Shown: one piece after another, positions 36,868-62,099 of the stretch
Layout of the letters: the number at the start of each line of letters is the position of its first letter
Numbering within the stretch: the stretch's first letter is position 1
Assembly (NCBI GenBank): GCA_035461175.1
Contig: DATHVR010000030.1
Location: forward strand, 9,392-73,391
Direction of reading: 5' to 3'
Length of the DNA: 64,000 bases
DNA from: Acidimicrobiia bacterium
Lineage (GTDB): Bacteria > Actinomycetota > Acidimicrobiia > Spongiisociales > ZC4RG35
Translations under genes and position numbers: made by a program
The notes under the pieces: generated by a model
The model's database searches: none
Seen by the model: only the letters and a program-made list of their open reading frames with translations
Told to the model about the DNA's origin: nothing

Positions 36868-39108
36868 ATGCCCGACGTCGCTTATCGCACCTGTCCGCTG
36901 TGCGAGGCCACCTGTGGTCTCGAGATTACGCTCGAGAACGGCGCCGTCAAGCGCATCCGTGGCGATCGCCACAACGTGTTCTCCGGAGGATTCATCTGTC
37001 CCAAGGGCACCACGCTGGGGCGACTCCACGCCGATCCCGATCGTCTCCGGTCTCCCCGCATTCGCCGGGGTGGCGAGGGGTGGGAGGAGGTGTCGTGGGC
37101 CGAGGCTTTCGCCTTCATCGAGAGCCGCTACCGGGCGGTGGTGGAGGCCGGGGGGCGGCAGGCGGCGGCGGCGTATCTGGGCAACCCCAACGTGCATTCC
37201 CTCGACAACGGGCTGGCGGTCCGTCCCTTCGTCAAGGCTCTCGCCACCCCCAACGTGTTCTCGGCCTCCACCGTCGACCAGATGCCCAAGCACGTCGCCT
37301 GCGGCTACATGTTCGGGCACCCGGCCACCATCCCCGTCCCCGACATCGATCGCACCGATCATCTGCTGATCCTCGGGGCCAACCCCTACGAGTCCAACGG
37401 CAGTCTCGCCACCGCCCCCGATTGGCCCGGCCGGCTCGAGGCACTGCGAGAGCGGGGCGGCACCCTGGTGGTGGTGGATCCCCGCCGGACCCGTACCGCT
37501 CGCGGGGCCGACCGCCACGTTCCCATCCGCCCCGGCACCGATGCCGCCTTGCTGGTGGCAATGGTCAACCACCTGTTCGCCATCGACGCCGTCGACCCGG
37601 CCGCCTTGGAGATCGCCGACGGCGTCGAGGAGGTGGCCGAGGCGGTGCGCGAGTTCACCCCCGAGTCCGTCGCTGCCTACTGCGGCGTCGATGCCGGCAC
37701 CGTCCGGTCACTCGCCGAGGAACTGGCGGCAGCCGAGCGAGGCGTCGTCTACGGGCGGATCGGAACGCACACCGTCGAGCACGGCACCCTGGCCGCCTGG
37801 GCGGTGGACGTTCTCAACATCCTGACCGGCAACTTCGATCGTCCCGGCGGCGCCATGTTCCCCCGTCCCCCCCATCTCTCCCCACGGCGCAAGGTCCGTT
37901 CCTTCGAAGTGGGCCGCTGGCGATCCCGGGTGCGGGACCTGCCCGAGGTGATGGGGGAGTTGCCGGTGATCACCCTGGCCGACGAGATCCTCACCGAGGG
38001 CGAGGGCCGGGTACGGGCCCTGTTCGTGGTGGGAGGCAACCCGGTTCTCACCAACCCCGACGCGGGGCGGCTGGAGGAGGCGCTGGCGTCGCTCGACCTC
38101 ATGGTCTCGGTGGACCCCTATCTGAACGAGACCTCCCGCTTCGCCGACGTCATCCTTCCCCCGCCGTCGGCCCTGGAACGTCCCCACTATGACCTCGCCT
38201 TCACCGGTCTCAGCGTACGCAACTACGCCATGTTCTCTCCCGTCGTCTTCCCGGCCGGGGGTCCGTCGGAGTTCGACATCCTCGTCACCCTGGCTGCCAT
38301 CGTGTCGGGGGCGGGAGCGGATCTCGATCCGGCCGGGCTGGCCCGGGCCAACCTGGAGCGCCCGATCGCGGCAACGGCGGCCGCGCTGGGACGGGAGGTG
38401 GACGAGATCCGGGCCGAGCTGGATCGGTGGGAGGATCCCCGTCTCGCCACGCTCGACCTTATGCTGCGAACCGGCCCCTACGGCGACGCCTTCGGTGCCC
38501 GGCCCGACGGGATCTCGCTCGCCACCCTGGCCGAGCATCCCCACGGTCTCGATCTGGGGCCATTGGAGCCGCGGCGGGAGGAGGCGGTGTCGACGCCGTC
38601 GGGACGGGTGCAGATCGCCCCGTCCGCCATCGTCGCCGACCTTCCCCGGCTCGTCCGGGCCCTGCACCACCCCGATCCCGGAGGAATGCTGATGATCGGT
38701 CGCCGGCAAGTACGCACGGCGAATTCGTGGCTGGGCAACATCGCGGTGCTGGTCCAGGGGCGCAACCGCTGCACACTCCAGATCCACCCCGACGACGCCC
38801 GACGGCTGGGCCTGGAACCGGGAGGAATGGCCGAGGTCACCACGGAGGTGGGCAAGACCACTATTCCGGTGGAGGTGACCGAAGACATCCGCCCGGGGGT
38901 GGTCAGCATCCCCTACGGATGGGGCCACGACGTCGACGGCGTCGAATTGTCGGTGGCCCGCCGCCATCCCGGCGTCAACGTCAACCTGCTCACCTCCACC
39001 GACCGCTTCGACCCCCTGTCGGGCAACGCCGCCCTCAACGCCGTCCCCGTCACCGTCGGCCCTGCCACCCAAAAAGAAAGGGCGAACCTGAAGACAGCGC
39101 GAACCTGA
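36868..39108 (+). CDS. Molybdopterin (Mo-bisMGD) oxidoreductase family protein, formate-dehydrogenase-like
   Basis: N-terminal 4Fe-4S motif CPLCEATCG…CPKG and MopB domains. The 3' end, encoding …RANLKTART*, is built from 17-bp tandem repeats. Confidence 0.8.
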   Translation: MPDVAYRTCPLCEATCGLEITLENGAVKRIRGDRHNVFSGGFICPKGTTLGRLHADPDRLRSPRIRRGGEGWEEVSWAEAFAFIESRYRAVVEAGGRQAAAAYLGNPNVHSLDNGLAVRPFVKALATPNVFSASTVDQMPKHVACGYMFGHPATIPVPDIDRTDHLLILGANPYESNGSLATAPDWPGRLEALRERGGTLVVVDPRRTRTARGADRHVPIRPGTDAALLVAMVNHLFAIDAVDPAALEIADGVEEVAEAVREFTPESVAAYCGVDAGTVRSLAEELAAAERGVVYGRIGTHTVEHGTLAAWAVDVLNILTGNFDRPGGAMFPRPPHLSPRRKVRSFEVGRWRSRVRDLPEVMGELPVITLADEILTEGEGRVRALFVVGGNPVLTNPDAGRLEEALASLDLMVSVDPYLNETSRFADVILPPPSALERPHYDLAFTGLSVRNYAMFSPVVFPAGGPSEFDILVTLAAIVSGAGADLDPAGLARANLERPIAATAAALGREVDEIRAELDRWEDPRLATLDLMLRTGPYGDAFGARPDGISLATLAEHPHGLDLGPLEPRREEAVSTPSGRVQIAPSAIVADLPRLVRALHHPDPGGMLMIGRRQVRTANSWLGNIAVLVQGRNRCTLQIHPDDARRLGLEPGGMAEVTTEVGKTTIPVEVTEDIRPGVVSIPYGWGHDVDGVELSVARRHPGVNVNLLTSTDRFDPLSGNAALNAVPVTVGPATQKERANLKTART

Positions 39109-39245
39109 AGACAATGCGAACCTGAGGTTCGGCTGTACCGCCACGGTGCAAAAGTCTCTCGAGAACGAGGGGCGGTCGGTCCATGCCCATGAACCTGAGA
39201 GAGTTCTGTACCGCCTCGGTACAAAAGAACCTGAGGTTCGCGTTA
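39082..39245. repeat. Repeat cluster: 3 x 17-bp tandem (gcgaacctgaagaca) plus two inverted copies of family-B palindromic repeat
   Basis: The reverse complement of 39128-39180 matches 23462-23512. A second copy at 39190-39245 is in direct orientation. Confidence 0.6.
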
Positions 39246-44591: not shown

Positions 44592-45359
44592 CTAGCGGCC
44601 CGGGCCGGGTGGGCCGGCGAAGACCTGGGCGATCTCCATCCAGCGCCGGGCCAGACCACCCTCCATCACCAGGTGAGTGTCGGCGAGATTGCGCCGCTGG
44701 GTCACCACCAGGCATAAGTCCTCGACCGGGCCGGTGATCGAGGCGTTTTCTTCGTCGTTCCACACCCGGATCGTCCCCGATGGGCCCCGCAGTGCCACCC
44801 GCACCCGTTGGTCGGGGATCTCCAACCCTCGATTCGAGAACGACCAGGAGAAGGTCCGCACTCCGAGGTCGGCGATGTGGAAGAGGCGGTCTGTCACGGG
44901 AAGGGAGGCGCCGAGGGCATCGGCGACGTCGGTGCCGTGGGCCCAGGTCTCCATCAGCCGGGCCACCACCGACGAGCGGGCCCGCATCGGTGGCCCGTAC
45001 CAGGGGAGCCGCTGCTCGGGGTCGACTCGGGCGAAGGCAGCGATCAGATCGGCCCGGGCCTTTTGCCACCACCCCAGGGTGTTGGGGCCATCGAGGGCCC
45101 GGTGGCGGTGGAGCTCGGCCACGTCGCCGGTGAGCGCCTCGATGTCGCGGTTCACCTGCTCGACGAAGGCATCGGGGTCGGACGCGGCGAGAGCGGCTCG
45201 CTCGTCGAAGTAGGCGAGGTGGCCGATCTGGTCCCGAATCGTCCACGGCTCGGCTGGAGTAATCGCCTCCCAACCGGCCGAATCCAGGCCTTCGATCAGC
45301 CTCATCAGCGCCTCGGTCTCGGCGGAGAGATCCGCCAGCAGCTCTGCGATCGTGCTCAT
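44592..45359 (-). CDS. TIGR03084-type DinB-like (maleylpyruvate isomerase N-terminal domain) protein
   Basis: Trimmed to MSTIAELLADL. WTIRDQIGHLAYFDE pattern. Confidence 0.65.
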   Translation of the reverse strand: MSTIAELLADLSAETEALMRLIEGLDSAGWEAITPAEPWTIRDQIGHLAYFDERAALAASDPDAFVEQVNRDIEALTGDVAELHRHRALDGPNTLGWWQKARADLIAAFARVDPEQRLPWYGPPMRARSSVVARLMETWAHGTDVADALGASLPVTDRLFHIADLGVRTFSWSFSNRGLEIPDQRVRVALRGPSGTIRVWNDEENASITGPVEDLCLVVTQRRNLADTHLVMEGGLARRWMEIAQVFAGPPGPGR

Positions 45360-45769
45360 CCCAGGTCCTCGTTGACGACCGCCATGGTGGCATGGAGGCG
45401 GGCGACATGGACCGCTTCGGCCCACACGTCGGCCTGGGTGAACACCAGCGTCCGTCCCGGCTTCACGACTTCTCCGCGACACCTGAGTTCCTCACCCCTG
45501 CCCGGCCGCAGCAGCTGGATCGACAGGTCAGAGGTCAATACCGATTGTCCCGGCTGCACCACGGTCGAGGCGGCGCCGCCGGCAGTGTGGTCGGCCATCG
45601 TGGTGATCACCCCGGCGTGGAGATAGCCGTGCTGCTGGAGGTGGCGCGGTTCAACCCGCAAGCGCGTCTCGACCCAGCCCGGGCCGGCATCTGCCAGTTC
45701 GTAGCCGACCTCCCGGATGAAGGGGGCGAGGGCGAAGACCGCTTGGACCCGGGACATCGCCTGGTTCAT
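45356..45769 (-). CDS. PaaI family hotdog-fold thioesterase
   Basis: HGYLHAGVITTMADHTAGGAA is the PaaI/4HBT motif. Confidence 0.75.
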   Translation of the reverse strand: MNQAMSRVQAVFALAPFIREVGYELADAGPGWVETRLRVEPRHLQQHGYLHAGVITTMADHTAGGAASTVVQPGQSVLTSDLSIQLLRPGRGEELRCRGEVVKPGRTLVFTQADVWAEAVHVARLHATMAVVNEDLG

Positions 45770-46212
45770 CGACTACGCAGGGGCCATACGAGCTGGATGC
45801 CAGGCTCGTCGTGGGCGGTGCCGGGCCATAGCCGGGCCCAGGGGTGACCGGCCGCATCGGAGCCGACGTCCCGCTGCATCTCGTCCAGGGCGGTAACCAG
45901 CCCCGCCACGTCCCCGTCGTGCCACCGGCTGGCAGCCTTACCACCGGGAAGGATCGTCGAACGCAGAGTCGGCACCGAGTGCGCACCGGTGAGCGGGATC
46001 CCGATATCGACCGCTATGGGCTCGGCCCGGTCGGTGAAACGCACAAAAGGTGCGCCGGCGGTGGGCACACGAGCAGCGGTGACTGCGGCCCGGACCCGGG
46101 CGAGTCCCTGCTCCACGACCTGGGCGAATCGGTCCACGGAGGTTGATCGTCCCAGGGCGACTGCCGGCACCGGCTCGACCTCGATCACCTCGATCTGGCC
46201 CGCCCGGCTCAT
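45766..46212 (-). CDS. GyrI-like small-molecule-binding domain protein
   Basis: 148 aa with weak similarity to AraC effector-binding / GyrI-like domains. Confidence 0.4.
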   Translation of the reverse strand: MSRAGQIEVIEVEPVPAVALGRSTSVDRFAQVVEQGLARVRAAVTAARVPTAGAPFVRFTDRAEPIAVDIGIPLTGAHSVPTLRSTILPGGKAASRWHDGDVAGLVTALDEMQRDVGSDAAGHPWARLWPGTAHDEPGIQLVWPLRSR

Positions 46213-46230
46213 TCCTGTGTTCCTTGCCCG

Positions 46231-46329
46231 ACCACCCTCATGATTCCCCCATCACCACCGTGCTCATTCCCCCACCACAACCGTCATGATTCCCCTTCCA
46301 CCACCGTCATGACTCCCCCACCACCACCG
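46231..46329. repeat. Tandem repeat, about 5 copies of a 21-23-bp unit duplicating the 3' end (last codons + stop) of the downstream carboxylase gene
   Basis: On the minus strand each unit reads …acggtggtggtgggggaatcATGA. Each copy forms a mini-ORF of the form MTVVVGES*, echoing the gene C-terminus …VLVVVGES*. Confidence 0.7.
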
Positions 46330-48306
46330 TCATGATTCCCCCACCACCACCAGTACCGCCTCGGCGGCGACCTGGTCTCCCGCTCCGGCGTGGATGGCGG
46401 TGACCACCCCGCCGTGGGGGGCGCGCAGTGAGTGCTCCATCTTCATCGCCTCCAGCACCACCAGCACCTGGCCTTCCTCCACCGTGTCGCCTTCCTCGAC
46501 CGTCACCCGTATCACCTTCCCGGGCATGGGGGCGTGGAGCGAGCCCGGGTCCTCTTCGTGCTCGGTGTCGGGGAACCGGGGCTTCTCGGTGAGTTGCACC
46601 GGACCTTCGGGGCCGTCGACGTAGATGGTGTCGCCCGACTGATGCACCCGATACCAGCCCAGCAAGCCCTCGAGCTCCAGGCCGACCCGGTCCTCGCTCG
46701 CTTCCAGCAGGCGAGCGTTATCGTATCCGTCGACGGTGAGGCGGCCGGAGCGGTCGAAGCTGTATCCGACCTCGATTTCCCCATGGCTGCCGGCGAAGTC
46801 GATCCGCTGGGGCTGTGAGGGCACGTTGCGCCAGCCGCTGGGGAGGGTGCCCAGTGCTCTGGCCTGGTGCCGGTGCCGGACCTGGGCGGCGAGAGCGGCC
46901 GCCACCGCCGCCCGCCGCTCCCCGTCGGCGTCGACCAATGGAGCGCTGAGGGCGGAGGGCTCGTGGCGCTCCAGAAAGTGGGTGTCGATCTCGCCCGCCA
47001 GGAACTCGGGATGGCGGAGGATGCGAACCAGCAGGTCCCGGTTGGTGACCGATCCGTGCACCGCCGCCCGTTCCAGGCTGCGGGCGAGGAGGATGGCCGC
47101 CTCGGCGCGGGTGGGAGCCCACGCCACCACCTTGGCCAACATCGGGTCGTAGTAGACGCTGATCTCCGAGCCGCTCTCGACCCCGCTGTCCACCCGCAGG
47201 CCCTCGGCCGCCGGGACCTCGAAGCGATCCAGGGTTCCCGTCACGGGCAGGAAGCCCGCCGAGGGGTCCTCGGCATACAGGCGGGCCTCGATGGCGTGAC
47301 CGACGAGGGAGGGACGCAGGGCGGCTTCGGGCAGCGGCTCGCCCATCGCCACCGTCAGTTGCAGACGCACCAGATCGAGGCCGGTCACCATCTCGGTGAC
47401 GGGGTGCTCGACCTGAAGCCGGGTGTTCATCTCCAGGAAGTAGAACTCGCCCTCCTGGTACAGGAACTCGACGGTGCCCGCCCCGACATAGTCGACGGCG
47501 CGGGCAGCGGCGACGGCCGCCTCACCCATCCGGGTGCGGGTGGCTTCGTCGATCACCGGCGAGGGGGCCTCCTCGATGATCTTCTGGTGGCGACGCTGGA
47601 TCGAACACTCACGCTCGAACAGCGACACGGTCTCCCCGGCTGTGTCGGCGAAGATCTGGATCTCGATGTGGCGAGGCGCCTCCAGGTACTTCTCCAGGAA
47701 CAAGGTGTCGTCGCCGAAGGCGGCTCCTGCCTCCCGGCGGGCGGCCTCGATCGCCTCGTCCAGTTCCTCCGGTTCGGCGACGATTCGCATGCCTTTGCCG
47801 CCTCCGCCGGCCGAGGCCTTGACCAGTACCGGGTAGCCGATCCTGGTTGCCAGCTCGGCCGCCTCGGCCGGATCTGAACCGGTGAGATCGAAGCCGGCCA
47901 GCGTGGGGACCCCGGCCGCTTCCATCAGGCGTTTGGAGGCGAGCTTGGAACCCATCACCTCGATGGCGGTGGCCGGAGGGCCGATCCAGATCAGCCCCGC
48001 CTCCTCCACGGCCCGGGCGAAAGAGGCGTTCTCGGCCAGGAATCCGTAACCGGGGTGGACGGCGTCGGCGCCGAGGCGCCGGGCGGCGGCCACCACCGCC
48101 TCGATGTCGAGATAGGTTTCGGCCGGGGAGTTGCCGGTCAGGGCCGCGGCCGAGTCGGCCTCACGGACGAAAGGGGCGCTGCGGTCGGCCTCGGAGTAGA
48201 CGGCGGCGGTGGCGATACCCATCCGGCGGCAGGTGGCGAAGATGCGTCGGGTGATCTCGCCCCGATTGGCGACGAGGAGCCTGGTGATGGTCGATTGCTG
48301 GGCCAT
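46330..48306 (-). CDS. Acyl-CoA carboxylase alpha subunit (biotin carboxylase + biotin carboxyl carrier domains)
   Basis: Trimmed to MAQQSTITRLLVANRGEI. ATP-grasp motifs and C-terminal EAMKME biotinylation site. Confidence 0.9.
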   Translation of the reverse strand: MAQQSTITRLLVANRGEITRRIFATCRRMGIATAAVYSEADRSAPFVREADSAAALTGNSPAETYLDIEAVVAAARRLGADAVHPGYGFLAENASFARAVEEAGLIWIGPPATAIEVMGSKLASKRLMEAAGVPTLAGFDLTGSDPAEAAELATRIGYPVLVKASAGGGGKGMRIVAEPEELDEAIEAARREAGAAFGDDTLFLEKYLEAPRHIEIQIFADTAGETVSLFERECSIQRRHQKIIEEAPSPVIDEATRTRMGEAAVAAARAVDYVGAGTVEFLYQEGEFYFLEMNTRLQVEHPVTEMVTGLDLVRLQLTVAMGEPLPEAALRPSLVGHAIEARLYAEDPSAGFLPVTGTLDRFEVPAAEGLRVDSGVESGSEISVYYDPMLAKVVAWAPTRAEAAILLARSLERAAVHGSVTNRDLLVRILRHPEFLAGEIDTHFLERHEPSALSAPLVDADGERRAAVAAALAAQVRHRHQARALGTLPSGWRNVPSQPQRIDFAGSHGEIEVGYSFDRSGRLTVDGYDNARLLEASEDRVGLELEGLLGWYRVHQSGDTIYVDGPEGPVQLTEKPRFPDTEHEEDPGSLHAPMPGKVIRVTVEEGDTVEEGQVLVVLEAMKMEHSLRAPHGGVVTAIHAGAGDQVAAEAVLVVVGES

Positions 48307-48392: not shown

Positions 48393-48716
48393 ATGACCTA
48401 TCAGCTTCGACCGATCGAGACCCGGATCCTGGCGATGCGACAGGCGGGGCTGAGCGACGCCGAGATCGGCACGAAGGTGCGCAAGAGCCCGTCCCGAGTG
48501 GCGATGATCGCCGATTGGGCCCAGCACCCGGCGCGCGGCTCGGGTTTGAAGCGCGAGGACGAGGTCCTGTCTCCTGTGGCCAAGAGGGTCCTGGCGATGC
48601 GGGCCGAAGGCCAGTCGCACGCCGAGATCGGCGATCGTCTCCGGCGCGGCCCTCGCTATGTACGTCAGGTCGAAGGCCTGGCCCACTTCCGCCGGTACCG
48701 GGAACTCCTGGGTTGA
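48393..48716 (+). CDS. Small protein with two tandem LuxR/GerE-type HTH repeats
   Basis: Internal duplication: ETRILAMRQAGLSDAEIGTKVRKSPSRV and AKRVLAMRAEGQSHAEIGDRLRRGPRYV. RBS gagaggag. Confidence 0.45.
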   Translation: MTYQLRPIETRILAMRQAGLSDAEIGTKVRKSPSRVAMIADWAQHPARGSGLKREDEVLSPVAKRVLAMRAEGQSHAEIGDRLRRGPRYVRQVEGLAHFRRYRELLG

Positions 48717-49378
48717 CCACACCCGAGCCGTCCCCGCCCCGGCGGGGGATAGGAGTAGGCACCGCGCTGCTGGTGGCGATGGTGCTGGGGTTGGTGGCCG
48801 TCATCGGTCTCACGGTGTGGGGGATCCGCAACATCGCCGACGCCGTGCCGACTCCCGCCGATCTGTCGGCGGCCCTGGAGCCGGAGCCATATCAGGAGAT
48901 CGGCCCCACCGTCGTCCGTTCGGTTCGTGACCTGGCCAACCTGACCACGATCGAACTGGTCGAGTACACGATCGTCGAGAAGGGGACCGATGCCGGATTC
49001 CTGGCCTGGGCCCGGGGCGACAGCCTGGAGTTGTTCGCCGTGGCCCGGATCGGAGCCGGGGTCGACCTCGGCTCCGTCAACGTCCGTTCCTTCGACCTGT
49101 CTGAGGACGGGGTGGTGGAAATGGTGGTGCCGGCGGCCGAGATCCAGTACGTGGCGGTCGACAATGAAGCTACCCAGATCCTCGATCGCTCCACCGGCTT
49201 GTTCACCAAGGGCGACCCCCGGCTCGAGTCGGATGCCCGGCGGGTGGCTGAGGAGATCCTCCAGCAGGCCGCCATCGAGGAGGGAATCCTCGACACCGCC
49301 GAGGAGAACGCCTCCGAGGTCATCACCAACTTCCTGCTCAGCCTCGGCTACCGCGACGTGATCATCGAGTTCGAATAG
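48713..49378 (+). CDS. DUF4230 family protein (N-terminal TM anchor)
   Basis: Possible TTG start overlapping the upstream stop (TTGA). The later ATG/GTG starts cannot be ruled out. Confidence 0.55.
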   Translation: MTTPEPSPPRRGIGVGTALLVAMVLGLVAVIGLTVWGIRNIADAVPTPADLSAALEPEPYQEIGPTVVRSVRDLANLTTIELVEYTIVEKGTDAGFLAWARGDSLELFAVARIGAGVDLGSVNVRSFDLSEDGVVEMVVPAAEIQYVAVDNEATQILDRSTGLFTKGDPRLESDARRVAEEILQQAAIEEGILDTAEENASEVITNFLLSLGYRDVIIEFE

Positions 49379-49382
49379 ATCC

Positions 49383-49430
49383 TTTTCGCGACAGAATTGC
49401 GCGCCATGGCGCGCAATTCATGCGCGAAAA
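49383..49430. repeat. Interspersed palindromic repeat, family A copy 2
   Basis: ttttcgcgacagaattgcgcgccatggcgcgcaattcatgcgcgaaaa. It overlaps the last 3 codons of the minus-strand DUF385 gene. Confidence 0.65.
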
Positions 49431-49855
49431 CGGTGGGGGTCGGCCTCGTCCATGCGGAGGAACTCGGTCACGTTGGCGAGGCGGAGGATGGGTCGGGCGG
49501 CTGCCGGCATGTGGGCCATTCCTTCCTCGGTCGAGACGAGCCGGGGATTGTCGAGGTGGACCTCCTGGCTCCGGCGTCGGATGGTGCAGGTACCGGCTGC
49601 CATCACGTTCTTGACCCAGTCGGCGTCGGATCCGTAGGTGAGGGCGAACATGAATCCGTGCTCGGCCTCTAAGACATTCAGGGGGATGGCGTACTCCCGG
49701 CCCGTTCGGCGACCGGAGTGCCTGAGTATGCAGAAGCCCGGCGCCCATCCGGCGAAGAGCCGGACGATGGGGTTGGTGACGTAACGGTTGAACCGTGCGA
49801 TGGCCCGGGGAATCGGCACAGCCTGATTATCGACCCATGACCCAGAACTCACCAC
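49418..49855 (-). CDS. Deazaflavin (F420H2)-dependent nitroreductase family protein (DUF385)
   Basis: ARFNRYVTNPIVRLFAGWAPGF…HSGRRTGREYAIPL is characteristic of the family. Confidence 0.75.
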   Translation of the reverse strand: MVSSGSWVDNQAVPIPRAIARFNRYVTNPIVRLFAGWAPGFCILRHSGRRTGREYAIPLNVLEAEHGFMFALTYGSDADWVKNVMAAGTCTIRRRSQEVHLDNPRLVSTEEGMAHMPAAARPILRLANVTEFLRMDEADPHRFRA

Positions 49856-49879: not shown

Positions 49880-51478
49880 TCACATGCGGAAGACGCCGAA
49901 TTCGGAGGTTCCCTTGACCGGGGCGGAGTGGGTGGCGGAGAGGGCGATGCCCAGCACGGTGCGGGTGTCGCGGGGGTCGATCAGGCCGTCGTCGCGGACC
50001 AGGGCGGTGGAGAAGTAGGCCTGCTCCTCGTGTTCGATCTGCGCCTCGATGAGGGCGGTGCGCTGGGCGTCCGCTTCCTCGTCGTAGGGGATGCCGCGTG
50101 CTTCCGCCGCCGCCCGCCCGATGATCGACATCACTCCCGCCAGCTGTTTGGGCCCCATCACCGCCACTTTGTGGTTGGGGTAGCCGAAGACGAATCGGGG
50201 GTCGTAGCTGCGGCCCGACATGCCGTAGTTGCCGGCCCCGTAGGAGACCCCGGTCATGAGCGAGATGTGGGGGACGGTGGAGTTGCTGACGGCATTGACC
50301 ATCTTGGCGCCGTCCTTGATCATTCCCCGCTGCTCGTACTGCTTGCCGACCATGTAGCCGGTGGTGTTGTGGCTGAAGATGATCGGGACGTCGTAGCGAT
50401 TGCACAGCTGGATGAATTCGGTCGCCTTCTGGGCCTCCTCGGAAAACAGGACGCCCTGCTGGTTGGCGATGACGCCGACCGGGAAGCCGTGGATCGAACC
50501 CCAGCCACACAGCAGCGAGATCCCGTATAGAGCCTTGTACTCCTCGAACCGGGACCCGTCCAGCACCCGGGCCAGGATCTCGCGCTGATCGAAGGGAATC
50601 CGCAGATCGGGAGGGATCGCCCCCAGGATCTCGTCGGGGTCGTAGAGAGGCTCGTCGGCGGGCATGGTGGGCCCGTACCCCTGCTTGCGCCAATTGAGGT
50701 GGGCGACGATGTCGCGTCCCATCCTGATCGCCTCGTACTCATCTCGGGCGAAGTAGTCGGACAGGCCCGAGATCTTGGAGTGCATCTCGGCGCCGCCCAG
50801 CTCCTCGTCGGTCGATTCCTCCCCCGTGGCCATCTTGACCAGGGGCGGGCCGCCCAGGAACACCTTCGCCTGCTGGTCGACCATCACGGCGTAGTCGCAC
50901 ATGCCGGGGACGTAGGCGCCGCCGGCGGTGGAGCTGCCGAAGACCAGGGCGATGGTGGGTACACCCGCCGCCGACATCTGTGTCAGGTTGCGGAACCACT
51001 TGCCGCCGGTGAGGAAAACCTCGGCCTGATCGGGGAGGTCGGCCCCGCCCGACTCGACCAGGTTGATGAGGGGCATCCGGTTCTCGCGGGCGATGTCCTG
51101 GGCACGGAGGCTCTTGCGCAGCGAGTAGCGGTTGGAGGATCCCGCCTGGGAGGTGGGGTCGTTGGCGGAAATGACACACTCGACCCCTTTGACCACCCCG
51201 ATCCCGGTGACGGCGTTGGCTCCGAGGGGTTTGTCGGATCCCCAGGCGGCCAGGGTCGACAGCTCGAGGAAGGGGGCGTCACGGTCGACCAGCAGCTCGA
51301 TTCGTTCCCGGGCCAGAAGTTTGCCCCGGTCCCGGTGGCGCTGGACGTACTTCTCGCCGCCTCCCATCCGGGCCTCGGCCAGCAGCTTCTCGAACTCCTC
51401 GAGGCGTTCCAGCATCGCGGTCCGGTTGGACCGGTACTCCTCCGAACGCGGATCGAGTCTGCTGCTGATCGGCTGCAT
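49880..51478 (-). CDS. Acyl-CoA carboxylase beta subunit (carboxyltransferase; methylcrotonoyl-/propionyl-CoA carboxylase type)
   Basis: ORF 49880..52030 trimmed to MQPISSRLD. Two carboxyltransferase domains. Confidence 0.9.
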   Translation of the reverse strand: MQPISSRLDPRSEEYRSNRTAMLERLEEFEKLLAEARMGGGEKYVQRHRDRGKLLARERIELLVDRDAPFLELSTLAAWGSDKPLGANAVTGIGVVKGVECVISANDPTSQAGSSNRYSLRKSLRAQDIARENRMPLINLVESGGADLPDQAEVFLTGGKWFRNLTQMSAAGVPTIALVFGSSTAGGAYVPGMCDYAVMVDQQAKVFLGGPPLVKMATGEESTDEELGGAEMHSKISGLSDYFARDEYEAIRMGRDIVAHLNWRKQGYGPTMPADEPLYDPDEILGAIPPDLRIPFDQREILARVLDGSRFEEYKALYGISLLCGWGSIHGFPVGVIANQQGVLFSEEAQKATEFIQLCNRYDVPIIFSHNTTGYMVGKQYEQRGMIKDGAKMVNAVSNSTVPHISLMTGVSYGAGNYGMSGRSYDPRFVFGYPNHKVAVMGPKQLAGVMSIIGRAAAEARGIPYDEEADAQRTALIEAQIEHEEQAYFSTALVRDDGLIDPRDTRTVLGIALSATHSAPVKGTSEFGVFRM

Positions 51479-59218: not shown

Positions 59219-60049
59219 ATGCCAGTCGAGATCACCCCCGATCACCCCTCGGTGGCCATCCTCGGTGCCGGAGCCATGGGAGAGGCGCTGTTGCGCGGCT
59301 TGCTGGCGGCCGGTTGGGCTTCCGACGAGGTGGGGGCGGCAGTGCGCCGGCCCGAACGGGCCGAGAGAGTGGGCCGGGTAACCGGCTGTCGGGTGACGCT
59401 CGATCCCGCCGACGCCCTGGCCGGGCGCCAGGTGGTGGTGGTCGCCACCAAGCCCCGGGACGTGGCCCGTCTCCTCGACCAGATCCACCAGGCGATCGCC
59501 CCGCCGCAGGTGCTGGTGTCGGTGGCGGCGGGGGTGCCCATAGCTACCTATGAGGGGCGACTGGAGGGAGTGGCGGTGATTCGCGCCATGCCCAACACAC
59601 CTGCCCTGGTGGGAGAAGGGGTGACGGGAATCGCCGCCGGGACCCACGCCGACGATGAATCGGTGGCGGCCGCTACCTCGGTTCTCTCGGCCGTGGGCGA
59701 GGTGCGGCGGATGGACGAGTCCCTCATGGATGCCGTCACCGCCGTCTCCGGGACCGGCCCCGCCTACGTCTTTCTCCTCGCCGAGGCTCTGGTCGAGGCG
59801 GCCATCCGCGAGGGCCTGCCCCGGGACACCGCCGAGACGCTCGTCTATCGGACTGTGCGGGGCGCCGGCCATCTCCTGACCGAGACCGGGCTCACGCCCG
59901 CCGAGTTGCGGGGTCAGGTGACCTCGCCCGGCGGGACCACCGCCGCCGCCATCCACATCCTGGAGGAGAAGGGATTCCGGGCCGTGGTCGAGGATGCGGT
60001 GCGAGCGGCGGCCGAGCGCTCCCGCCAGTTGGGTGAGAACAACCAATGA
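59219..60049 (+). CDS. proC: Pyrroline-5-carboxylate reductase
   Basis: VAILGAGAMGEAL NADP motif plus the ProC C-terminal dimerisation domain (TSPGGTT). Confidence 0.9.
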   Translation: MPVEITPDHPSVAILGAGAMGEALLRGLLAAGWASDEVGAAVRRPERAERVGRVTGCRVTLDPADALAGRQVVVVATKPRDVARLLDQIHQAIAPPQVLVSVAAGVPIATYEGRLEGVAVIRAMPNTPALVGEGVTGIAAGTHADDESVAAATSVLSAVGEVRRMDESLMDAVTAVSGTGPAYVFLLAEALVEAAIREGLPRDTAETLVYRTVRGAGHLLTETGLTPAELRGQVTSPGGTTAAAIHILEEKGFRAVVEDAVRAAAERSRQLGENNQ

Positions 60050-60954
60050 GCCTCTTCACCCGCGGTGTGGTCGGCGTCACCTCCTGGCCCCCGATCGAGC
60101 GGCTGATCACCTCCACCTCGGCCGGGCAGGCCCTGGCCCGTCGCTTCGTCGCCGGCGACACCCGGGCCGAGGCCACCGATGTCGCCCGTCGCCTCAACCA
60201 GGACCGACTCCTCGTGTCGCTCGACCTGATGGGTGAGGCGGTGACGGACCCTGACGGCGTGGCCCGCGCCACCGACGAGTATCTGAAGTGTCTCGAGATG
60301 ATCCCCTCCGAGGGGTTGGAAGCCAACATCTCGGTCAAGCTCACCCAGTTGGGACTGGCCTTCGATCCCGCCCTCGCCGCCCAATCGTTGGACCGTCTCG
60401 CCACTACTGCTCGGGAGGCAGGCACCTCCGTCACCGTGGACATGGAGGACTCCCGCTACACCCAGGCCACCGTCGATCTATACGCCGATGCCCAGGCCCG
60501 CCACGGCAACCTCGGTGTCTGCCTGCAGGCCTACCTCTACCGCACCCCCGCCGACCTCGAGCGGATCCTCCCCCTCGGGGGCCATATCCGGCTGTGCAAG
60601 GGAGCCTATGTCGAGTCACCCGAGGTGGCCCACCAGGGCTCGGACGAGGTCGACGCCGCCTTCGCCCGCCTGCTCATGGTGCTGATGGAGTTCGAAGAGG
60701 TGCGGCCCGCCATCGCCACCCATGATCCCCGGCTGATCGATCTCACCCTCGACCTGGCCGGGCGGCGCTCCGGTGATTACGAGTTCCAGATGCTTTACGG
60801 GGTGCGTCCCGATGAACAGCAGCGCCTGCGTGGGTTCGGCCACGACCTGCGGGTCTATCTCCCCTTCGGCTCCGCCTGGTACCCCTATCTCACCCGCCGC
60901 ATGGCCGAACGCCCCGCCAACGTCGCTTTCTTCCTCCGCGCGCTGGTCAAATAG
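60046..60954 (+). CDS. Proline dehydrogenase (monofunctional PRODH)
   Basis: PutA-type PRODH barrel motifs (LQAYLYRT, DMEDS). Confidence 0.85.
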   Translation: MSLFTRGVVGVTSWPPIERLITSTSAGQALARRFVAGDTRAEATDVARRLNQDRLLVSLDLMGEAVTDPDGVARATDEYLKCLEMIPSEGLEANISVKLTQLGLAFDPALAAQSLDRLATTAREAGTSVTVDMEDSRYTQATVDLYADAQARHGNLGVCLQAYLYRTPADLERILPLGGHIRLCKGAYVESPEVAHQGSDEVDAAFARLLMVLMEFEEVRPAIATHDPRLIDLTLDLAGRRSGDYEFQMLYGVRPDEQQRLRGFGHDLRVYLPFGSAWYPYLTRRMAERPANVAFFLRALVK

Positions 60955-60999: not shown

Positions 61000-61312
61000 G
61001 GCCGTCGTGGTGGTCAGGGCCATCCGCCCACCCGTCACGCGTTTGGACCCCGTCTGTCTCTTGGTGGGGCGACTTCGGGGCCGGCTTCGCCTCGCAGACC
61101 CCCGTCTGGTGACGCGTCTTTGGGGTTCGGGGCCGTACCCCGAACAGACGCCGGTCGCCCGACGGCTATCGCTCTGTTTTTGGTCGGGCGACTTCCGACT
61201 TCCGACTTCCGACTTCCGGCTCACCACCCACCACTCATTACCCATCACACCCACGACTCACTACCCACCACACCCACGACTCACCACCCACCACACCCAA
61301 CGACCACCACCG
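61000..61312. repeat. Repeat-rich intergenic region upstream of pspA: GTCACGCGT-containing direct repeats, hairpin GTTCGGGG-CCGTA-CCCCGAAC, 4 x GACTTCC heptad (61190..61217), about 3 x 22-25-bp CACCCACGACTCAC(Y)ACCCACCACA repeats (61221..61312)
   Basis: Direct reading of the sequence. Local GC is lower than the surrounding genes. Confidence 0.6.
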
Positions 61313-61385: not shown

Positions 61386-62099
61386 ATGCTCAAGCGAATT
61401 TGGGGCTACATCAAGCAACTCTTCAGGGGGATGGCCGAGTCCGCCATGGACCCCGAGGTGGAGGTCGAGCAGGCCATCCAGGAAGCCCGGGCTGCCGACC
61501 AGCGCCTGCGCAACCAGGCCGCCAAAGTCATCGCCCACCGGACCCAGCTCGAAGCCAAGATCGGGCAGGCCGCCGCCGACCTGGGGGAGGCTCGGGAGAT
61601 GGCCAAGCAGGCTCTGCTCCGGGCGGAGGAAGCCAAGAACTCCTCCGACGCCGAGGGTGTCGACAAATGGACCCGGGCAGCTCAGTCGCTGGCCATGAAG
61701 ATCCAGGCCGCCGAGTCCAACGTCAACGGGCTCAAGGAACAGTACGAGGTAGCACTGCAGCAGTCCGAGGACGCCAAGGACGCGGTGCAACAGAACGCCA
61801 TGCGGGTTCAGGAATTGGCCGCCAAGCGGATGCAGCTCCTGGGCAAGCTGGAGCAGGCCAAGATGCAGGAGGCGGTCAACTCGGCCGTCGAGACGATGTC
61901 GGCCTCCCTCGAGCGTGAGGCTCCTTCCCTCAGCAAGGTCGAGGAGAAGATCGAGGGCCGTCTGGCCAGCGCCAAGGCGCACACCGAGCTGCGCGAGGTG
62001 ACCCCGGCGGGTGCCGAGCAGGAGCTGAAGGAGGCGGTGTCGCTCACGCAGGCCGATGCCAAGCTGGACGAGCTCCGCAAGGAGCTTGGCCTCAGCTGA
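61386..62099 (+). CDS. pspA: PspA/IM30 family protein
   Basis: Coiled-coil N-terminus MLKRIWGYIKQLFRG…QAIQEARA is typical of PspA. Confidence 0.85.
   Translation: MLKRIWGYIKQLFRGMAESAMDPEVEVEQAIQEARAADQRLRNQAAKVIAHRTQLEAKIGQAAADLGEAREMAKQALLRAEEAKNSSDAEGVDKWTRAAQSLAMKIQAAESNVNGLKEQYEVALQQSEDAKDAVQQNAMRVQELAAKRMQLLGKLEQAKMQEAVNSAVETMSASLEREAPSLSKVEEKIEGRLASAKAHTELREVTPAGAEQELKEAVSLTQADAKLDELRKELGLS

Follow-up and report, generated by a model that had tools for sequence, protein, structure and literature searches.

A 23-nucleotide tandem array of stop/start junctions between an acyl-CoA carboxylase gene and a GyrI-like gene

Whether translational coupling works by reinitiation or by mRNA unfolding remains a matter of debate (PMC12548453). 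Coupling is best when stop and start codons are spaced at -4 to +3 nt and is mostly lost beyond 30 to 40 nt in several systems, and short ORFs are able to bring ribosomes to a downstream gene (PMC12548453). The mycobacterial MIRUs (Supply et al. 1997, via PMC12548453 and PMC3184786) are intercistronic, co-oriented repeats whose internal ORFs are joined by -4 overlaps to the stop and start codons on either side. The same papers give them a length of 40 to 100 bp and ~40 to 50 loci per genome, and describe them as apparently inserted as mobile elements, unrelated to the flanking genes (PMC12548453, PMC3184786). For the MIRUs of the senX3-regX3 spacer, promoter activity has been reported (PMC4213456).

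Here we analyze a tandem array that lies between an acyl-CoA carboxylase alpha-subunit gene and a gene of the GyrI-like effector-binding family, all on one strand, in a stretch of 64,000 nucleotides (the window). From comparison of the sequence with its relatives, we consider it probable that the array is a slippage-born intercistronic minisatellite of the stop/start junction, specific to this locus and tolerated because translational coupling has been kept. In a limited literature search, which yielded only MIRU and general coupling papers, we found neither a relay of serial mini-ORFs nor an intercistronic minisatellite derived from a gene junction.

Array anatomy and mini-ORF chain

TRF, run on the window, reports one array at 46231-46351 with a period of 23, 5.3 copies, 83% matches, 0% indels, and a score of 179; with its degenerate end unit, the array spans 46213-46351 on the minus strand (Table 1). 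The 23-mer GGTGGTGGTGGGGGAATCATGAC has four matches at ≤3 mismatches in the whole window, all of them within the array locus, and none in any of 100 dinucleotide-preserving shuffles. By both measures, units of at least 10 bp stand head to tail here above chance. The initial annotation had placed about five imperfect copies of a 21- to 23-bp unit at 46231-46329, downstream of a carboxylase gene that ends in ...GTG GTG GTG GGG GAA TCA TGA. That ending is correct as written (minus strand, stop at 46332-46330; the 3' end reads ...GCG GTA CTG GTG GTG GTG GGG GAA TCA TGA), and the array is real, but the period is exactly 23 and the interval covers most, not all, of the noncarboxylase part, missing both the gene-terminal copy and the tail to 46213. 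Nor are the copies identical in register to the gene end, since units 1 to 4 differ from unit 0 at 1, 2, 4, and 2 positions, respectively; the peptide M-T-V-V-V-G-E-S-stop, which had been assigned to every copy, is exact for mini-ORF 1 only.

Table 1. Coordinates of the array units, mini-ORFs, and operon genes in the window
Feature	Position	Strand	Remarks
Acyl-CoA carboxylase alpha subunit (biotin carboxylase + BT domain + biotinyl carrier), 658 aa	46330..48306	-	Ends VLVVVGES-TGA
Unit 0, GGTGGTGGTGGGGGAATCATGAC	46329..46351	-	Carboxylase's final six sense codons, SD-like GGGGGA, ATGA stop/start overlap, and one further base
Unit 1, 23 nt	46306-46328	-	No indels
Unit 2, 23 nt	46283-46305	-	No indels
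Unit 3, 23 nt	46260-46282	-	No indels
Unit 4, 23 nt	46237-46259	-	No indels
Degenerate final (sixth) unit, GGTGGTCGGGCAAGGAACACAGGA	46213..46236	-	Runs into the GyrI-like start codon
Mini-ORF 1, MTVVVGES*	46307..46333	-	ATG overlaps carboxylase TGA (ATGA); predicted anti-SD duplex, -8.4 kcal/mol
Mini-ORF 2, MTVVEGES*	46284..46310	-	ATGA overlap at each end
Mini-ORF 3, MTVVVGE*	46264..46287	-	Stop shifted 3 nt upstream by C18G in unit 3; new ATGA there
Mini-ORF 4, MSTVVMGES*	46238..46267	-	
Mini-ORF 5, MRVVGQGTQE*	46209..46241	-	TGA overlaps GyrI-like ATG
GyrI-like effector-binding family gene, 148 aa	45766..46212	-	Assigned via homologues; receives the chain
Hotdog-fold (4HBT) thioesterase	45356..45769	-	ATG overlaps GyrI-like TGA by 4 nt; without SD (-1.5 kcal/mol)
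TIGR03084/MDMPI_N metal-binding protein	44592..45359	-	4-nt overlap with the thioesterase gene

Central to our reading is a point that the initial annotation had missed: the duplicated unit holds an ATGA, the site at which carboxylase stop and GyrI-like start overlap. An unbroken chain from ATGA to ATGA thus runs from the carboxylase gene through five mini-ORFs to the GyrI-like ATG (46212), with six -4 junctions, all of them ATGA, and the 117-nt spacer is tiled by mini-ORFs of 7 to 10 codons. The arithmetic is simple; eight codons plus a stop make 27 nt, and subtraction of the 4-nt overlap leaves 23. Because a period of 23 is 2 mod 3, each ATG opens an eight-codon frame that ends at the TGA of the next ATGA, and only periods of 2 mod 3 let a duplicated ATGA form a chain of this kind. 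The chain also resets its own frame: since 3 does not divide the period, reading in any frame meets a TGA within three units.

The units have diverged without breaking this arrangement. C18G in unit 3 is enough by itself to bring the stop forward by one codon and to supply a fresh in-frame ATG that overlaps it, and the chain is kept; because of this change, mini-ORF 3 is one codon shorter and mini-ORF 4 one codon longer. Three substitutions in unit 3 convert AATCATGAC to AATGAGCAC, and the 9-mer GGAATGAGC of this unit matches the sequence at the true gene start exactly, a hint that unit 3 may derive from a unit of the terminal type. The degenerate final unit has an equally long counterpart, with six differences, in a relative of 87% identity (L002); when compensating indels were looked for in this pair, gaps improved only slightly on the ungapped alignment, which has 6 mismatches.

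Each mini-ORF start also has a good candidate ribosome binding site. The SD-like GGGGGA run is part of the G-rich Val-Val-Val-Gly codons, and the predicted anti-SD duplexes at the five mini-ORF ATGs range from -8.4 to -11.3 kcal/mol, versus a window background of -4.2 +/- 2.9. Predicted values for the real downstream genes are weaker than those at the mini-ORF starts, the GyrI-like, thioesterase, and TIGR03084 genes having -6.0, -1.5, and -6.3 kcal/mol, respectively. The GyrI-like value belongs to a possible SD of its own, AAGGA, at a spacing of 7. With weak SDs and 4-nt overlaps throughout the downstream genes, the operon looks reliant on coupling. The 117-nt "intergenic" region is probably translated. 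The chain as a whole holds ~14 GUG/GUU/GUC valine codons.

The flanking genes were assigned as follows. The carboxylase has Pfam matches to Biotin_carb_N, CPSase_L_D2, Biotin_carb_C, BT_MCC_alpha, and Biotin_lipoyl, and its NCBIfam matches fall under the equivalog cutoffs; its start at 48306 follows the 658-aa gene call in an independently assembled contig (L001, below), whereas the mechanical ORF reaches 48834. The 148-aa protein has no direct Pfam match. One of its homologues (P0005) scores 30 bits on PF06445, for which the cutoff is 26, and the protein has 13 homologue clusters in the protein collection, with 16 invariant alignment columns. A terminator-like hairpin and T-run lie at 46050-46070 (minus strand) within the GyrI-like coding sequence; this is a single scan match where 0.2 are expected and is probably due to chance. 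Upstream, the carboxylase alpha gene and a carboxyltransferase/beta gene (49880-51415) are parted by 48393-49819, which holds a divergent pair (a small HTH/sigma-70 region 4-like protein and a DUF4230 protein) and a family-less 133-aa ORF. This alpha/beta-separating arrangement is kept in the distant relatives L008 and L010.

Does the unit occur elsewhere? TRF, applied to 173 kb of sequence, found it only at the carboxylase/GyrI-like junction. A dispersed repeat family was likewise rejected, for near-exact copies: in a scan of genome and metagenome contigs with GGGGNARTCATGACGGTGGTGG, an Acidimicrobiia MAG matched at the orthologous junction and all else was due to chance, although exact-pattern scans of this kind miss diverged copies. 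The chance matches were single ones in Hoeflea, Bacteroidota, and Verrucomicrobiae and inside an actinobacterial membrane-protein gene. The window has other tandem repeats. Adjacent arrays of CGACTTC (4.3 copies, 100% identical) and of a 23-nt unit, CACCCACGACTCACTACCCACCA (3.8 copies), occupy 61189-61311 in a gap of ~430 nt between genes for proline dehydrogenase (60046-60954, plus strand) and PspA/IM30 (61386-62099, plus strand). We considered whether this second 23-nt array (61225-61311) might be kin to the carboxylase array and rejected the idea, its sequence and context being unrelated. At 39074-39125, a 17-nt tandem repeat, AAGACAGCGCGAACCTG, is present in 3.1 copies and is followed by a possible hairpin (GAACCTGAGGTTC).

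Independent assemblies and copy number among relatives

The initial annotation had allowed that the array might be an assembly artefact, a collapsed or expanded repeat. This is extremely improbable. An ENA contig from an independent metagenome assembly (ERZ27272640 k141_778621; L001) aligns to the window at 99.67% identity over 7,901 nt, with 26 mismatches and no gaps; in spite of these 26 single-nucleotide differences, it carries the same array, its 117-nt spacer being identical to that of the window. Since the units of the window differ from one another, no 31-mer is repeated within its array, making collapse unlikely, and the same design recurs in five further lineages, one of them an Acidimicrobiia MAG. 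JGI contigs are among the sequences with such arrays. What could be taken to favor an artefact is that short-read Logan contigs of related strains (L002 to L005) break inside the array or at its edge: those of the 87% lineage (L002/L003) start inside it, and that of a 95% lineage (L004) starts at its edge. Such breaks are as expected for perfect repeats that exceed the k-mer, and they matter for annotation, as contigs frequently break at arrays of such a kind. At positions 1-22 of L004, the Logan contig (SRR24956259_283987) opens with a Nextera transposase adapter (..AGATGTGTATAAGAGACAG) joined to the last array unit, which is contamination in a public assembly.

We compared ten distinct junctions (window/L001, L006/L007, L008/L009, L010, L011, L016, L018, L019, L020, and L021). 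The relatives' contigs were picked for encoding a homologue of the 148-aa protein, except for L016, which came from a DNA-pattern scan of species-representative genomes. Four of them have no array; in L010, L011, L019, and L021, the two genes overlap directly by TTGA, GTGA, GTGA, and ATGA, respectively, and the carboxylase ends in ...VVG(D/E)(S/T/G)*. This direct overlap is evidently the ancestral state. One mini-ORF is present in L020 and two each in L006/L007, where the units have diverged, and in L008/L009, where three copies are perfect; the window and L001 have five, and the uncultured Acidimicrobiia MAG L016 has 7.6 copies at 98% identity. The number of extra units at the orthologous junction is thus 0, 1, 2, 5, or 7. 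In L018, the genes are instead separated by a 34-nt nonrepeat spacer containing a 13-codon ORF with NTGA at both ends, which could bridge the gap if the downstream gene starts at GTG. A decayed array is not a convincing source of that spacer, its local alignment to the unit being no better than that of shuffles (P = 0.29). Counting L018 on the condition of the GTG start, the NTGA chain is unbroken in all ten loci.

In a tree of the GyrI-like protein, arrays fall into three separate clades, beside array-free sisters, and L008 differs from L019 by two units although the two are 90 to 92.6% identical in DNA. Because array-bearing and array-free loci interleave on the tree and these two differ, both gain and loss of units must be recurrent. 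At closer range, the number is stable. The near-identical contigs of L006/L007 and of L008/L009 come from different samples and agree in their arrays within each pair; with the window and L001, that makes three strain pairs, at ≥99.7% identity, with equal copy number. The comparisons that the initial annotation had proposed, of copy number between strains and of orthologous loci, therefore give 0 to 7 extra units between lineages and no difference within near-identical pairs, with the array present at some orthologous loci and absent from others.

Two of these lineages have peculiarities of their own. The largest array seen is that of L016 (7487-7955; MFD02923.bin.1.45, CAVYYV010000006.1), with near-perfect units, one of which is 24 nt long; its extra G, possibly a homopolymer error, only fuses two mini-ORFs. 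The last unit of L016 runs in frame into the GyrI-like protein at residue ~53, giving a 103-aa ORF (MTVVVGPSFVRY...) without the N-terminal third. An array can thus accompany damage to the downstream gene, here the loss of its first ~50 codons. In L006 (974-1097) and L007 (906-1029), a nonrepetitive spacer of 124 nt separates the GyrI-like and thioesterase genes, which overlap by 4 nt in the other lineages examined; GyrI-like/thioesterase coupling would appear to have been lost or replaced in this lineage.

Origin, proposed ribosome relay, and alternative explanations

The initial annotation had derived the array from the carboxylase gene's own 3' end by slipped-strand duplication. The origin by slippage holds up well: array-free kin share the ...VVVG(E/D)S* ending, and others have 1, 2, 5, or 7 extra units. 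What is duplicated, though, is the stop/start junction and not merely the tail of the gene. Most probably, replication slippage (slipped-strand mispairing) or unequal recombination duplicated the 23-nt carboxylase/GyrI-like junction. The array-free junction of L019 reads ...GTC GTG GTG GGG GAA ACG TGA CGG TGA TC.., where the opening codons of the downstream gene (M-T-V) include a GGTG and a GGTC stands 23 nt upstream of it; this GGTC is GGTG where a lineage encodes that valine as GTG. It is plausible that this pair provided the microhomology behind the duplication.

Each new copy would bring with it an SD-like GGGGGA and an ATGA. Ribosomes leaving the carboxylase gene may then terminate and reinitiate five times, or load anew at each SD-ATG, and would reach the GyrI-like ATG in a coupled arrangement, as array-free relatives have directly. 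Relayed in this way, and possibly topped up, along the array, they would allow arrays of period 23 to be tolerated. A 117-nt untranslated gap should uncouple the downstream genes, because coupling is mostly lost beyond 30 to 40 nt in several systems; the tiling by mini-ORFs swaps that gap for six -4 junctions, and therefore we think a relay of ribosomes likely. We infer that the mini-ORFs are translated and that, through the relay, the three downstream genes (GyrI-like, thioesterase, and TIGR03084) keep their translation or have it tuned; copy number might in this way tune the downstream output.

The main alternative is a purely neutral VNTR, the product of slippage without any translational role, in which the mini-ORFs are an arithmetic by-product and the GyrI-like gene uses its own weak SD. 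We regard this as rather unlikely, although several observations agree with it. When the nine observed substitutions were placed at random in units 1 to 4 in a neutral simulation, the chain stayed intact in 41% of cases with ATG only as start and in 51% with ATG, GTG, or TTG. With P = 0.41 to 0.51, the intact chain of the window is not in itself evidence of selection, nor can it be claimed as statistical proof that the chain is selected. Copy number varies between lineages, arrays are missing in sister lineages, and the copies in L008 and L016 are perfect and evidently recent, too young for selection to have tested them. The possible SD 7 nt upstream of the GyrI-like ATG also weakens the case for a relay, since that gene could start independently. 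Neutrality fits less well with the junctions taken together. All ten states retain an NTGA-linked path, including the array-free loci, which hold a strict -4 overlap, and L018, whose spacer is bridgeable if the GTG start is used; the remaining operon junctions are also at -4 with weak SDs, or in the case of the thioesterase start with none; and the SD matches of the mini-ORFs outdo those of the real genes, so that ribosomes would be hard to keep off. Together, these features suggest a function, and we continue to favor a minisatellite tolerated because it preserves coupling.

Other readings give the array a role as nucleic acid structure or as a binding site. Each unit has GGUGGUGGUGG/GGTGGTGGTGG, that is, four GG tracts with 1-nt loops (four tracts of ≥2 G; unit RNA, r(GGUGGUGGUGGGGGAAUC)), and the G-rich strand is the sense strand, so that a two-tier G-quadruplex could form in the mRNA or in the nontemplate DNA strand, slowing ribosomes or polymerase and perhaps driving slippage. 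G4-aware ViennaRNA (gquad) does predict quadruplexes in the units, the minimum free energy changing from -76.7 to -117.7 kcal/mol, but this energy reflects a generic parameter and is not a measured one. Two-tier RNA quadruplexes are weak. Ordinary folding is also stronger than chance (z = -2.86), chiefly through pairing between units of the palindromes TCATGA and GTCATGAC, while Rfam gave the array no match at E ≤ 1. The G tracts are, moreover, the conserved Val-Val-Val-Gly codons of the carboxylase C terminus, found in array-free relatives as well, and a structural element leaves the exact ATGA register unexplained. We give this reading only a slim chance on its own; as a driver of slippage, structure is compatible with the minisatellite origin, and the quadruplex potential of the units could have favored duplication. 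The same palindromes, recurring every 23 bp, might be taken for an array of operators, for instance for the divergently encoded HTH protein, and the promoter activity of the senX3-regX3 MIRUs raises the thought of an internal promoter for carboxylase-independent transcription. Against these ideas, the palindrome is merely a serine codon plus the ATGA overlap, the location is a gene 3' end within an operon, close relatives have no array, with copy number ranging from 0 to 7 extra units, and scans found no sigma-70-type promoter-like site in 45600-46900 and nothing resembling a promoter or terminator within the array. Such a role is very improbable.

One can envision a more ambitious form of the relay, in which the array is selected as a copy-number-adjustable rheostat. 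The reinitiation steps, or the extra SD-ATG sites, would set the ratio of ribosomes on the GyrI-like, thioesterase, and TIGR03084 genes to those on the carboxylase gene, and lineages would tune this ratio in units of 23 nt. The run of valine codons may add tRNA-Val sensing; possibly it makes downstream translation sensitive to charged tRNA-Val, beside a carboxylase with a methylcrotonyl-CoA-carboxylase-type BT domain. We consider the rheostat a long shot. If true, it would make serial mini-ORF relays a class of regulator for which our limited literature search returned no description.

For the minisatellite reading that we prefer, the interest lies elsewhere. The 0, 1, 2, 5, and 7 extra relay steps form a natural allelic series in an otherwise conserved operon, one that could be used to measure the efficiency of reinitiation per step. 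The locus also illustrates how an overlapping gene pair can gain an intergenic spacer without loss of coupling, by a duplication whose period equals 2 mod 3, and this route to a spacer bears on the tolerance of MIRU-like intercistronic repeats.

Comparison with known systems

In mechanism, nothing here is new; the array is an ordinary slippage minisatellite combined with classic NTGA overlaps. It resembles other VNTRs and minisatellites in its head-to-tail units without indels, in a copy number that varies between lineages, and in the coexistence of young homogenized arrays (L008 and L016) with an older, diverged one (the window). Most described VNTRs lie within coding repeats or promoters. 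This one differs in duplicating a stop/start overlap, so that every copy is an SD, an ATG, an ORF, and a TGA.

Its six ATGA junctions at -4, each with an SD-like run upstream, are those of NTGA coupling (PMC12548453), and the array-free orthologues are classic -4 overlaps; the difference is that coupling would have to run through five consecutive ORFs of 7 to 10 codons, not one junction. A unit also resembles the engineered bicistronic design (PMC12548453), in which a short leader ORF holds the SD and its stop overlaps the start of the target gene: in functional terms, it would be a leader cistron bearing the SD for the start that follows and closing with a stop/start overlap. In contrast to that design, the array is natural, fivefold, and made from the C-terminal codons of the upstream gene itself.

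The closest analogue is the mycobacterial MIRU. Like MIRUs, the array is intercistronic within an actinobacterial operon and co-oriented with the genes, its unit ORFs overlap stop and start codons at -4, its copy number varies between strains or lineages, and coupling is thought to be preserved. The differences are as clear. The unit is 23 nt, short of the 40 to 100 bp of MIRUs; it was copied from the junction where it lies and not inserted as an element; at the level of near-exact copies, it is found at one orthologous locus only, not as filled and empty sites at tens of loci; and the host is not Mycobacterium but Acidimicrobiia-like, its nearest named relative being an uncultured Acidimicrobiia MAG. 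By this analogy, the array would work like a MIRU array without being a member of the family.
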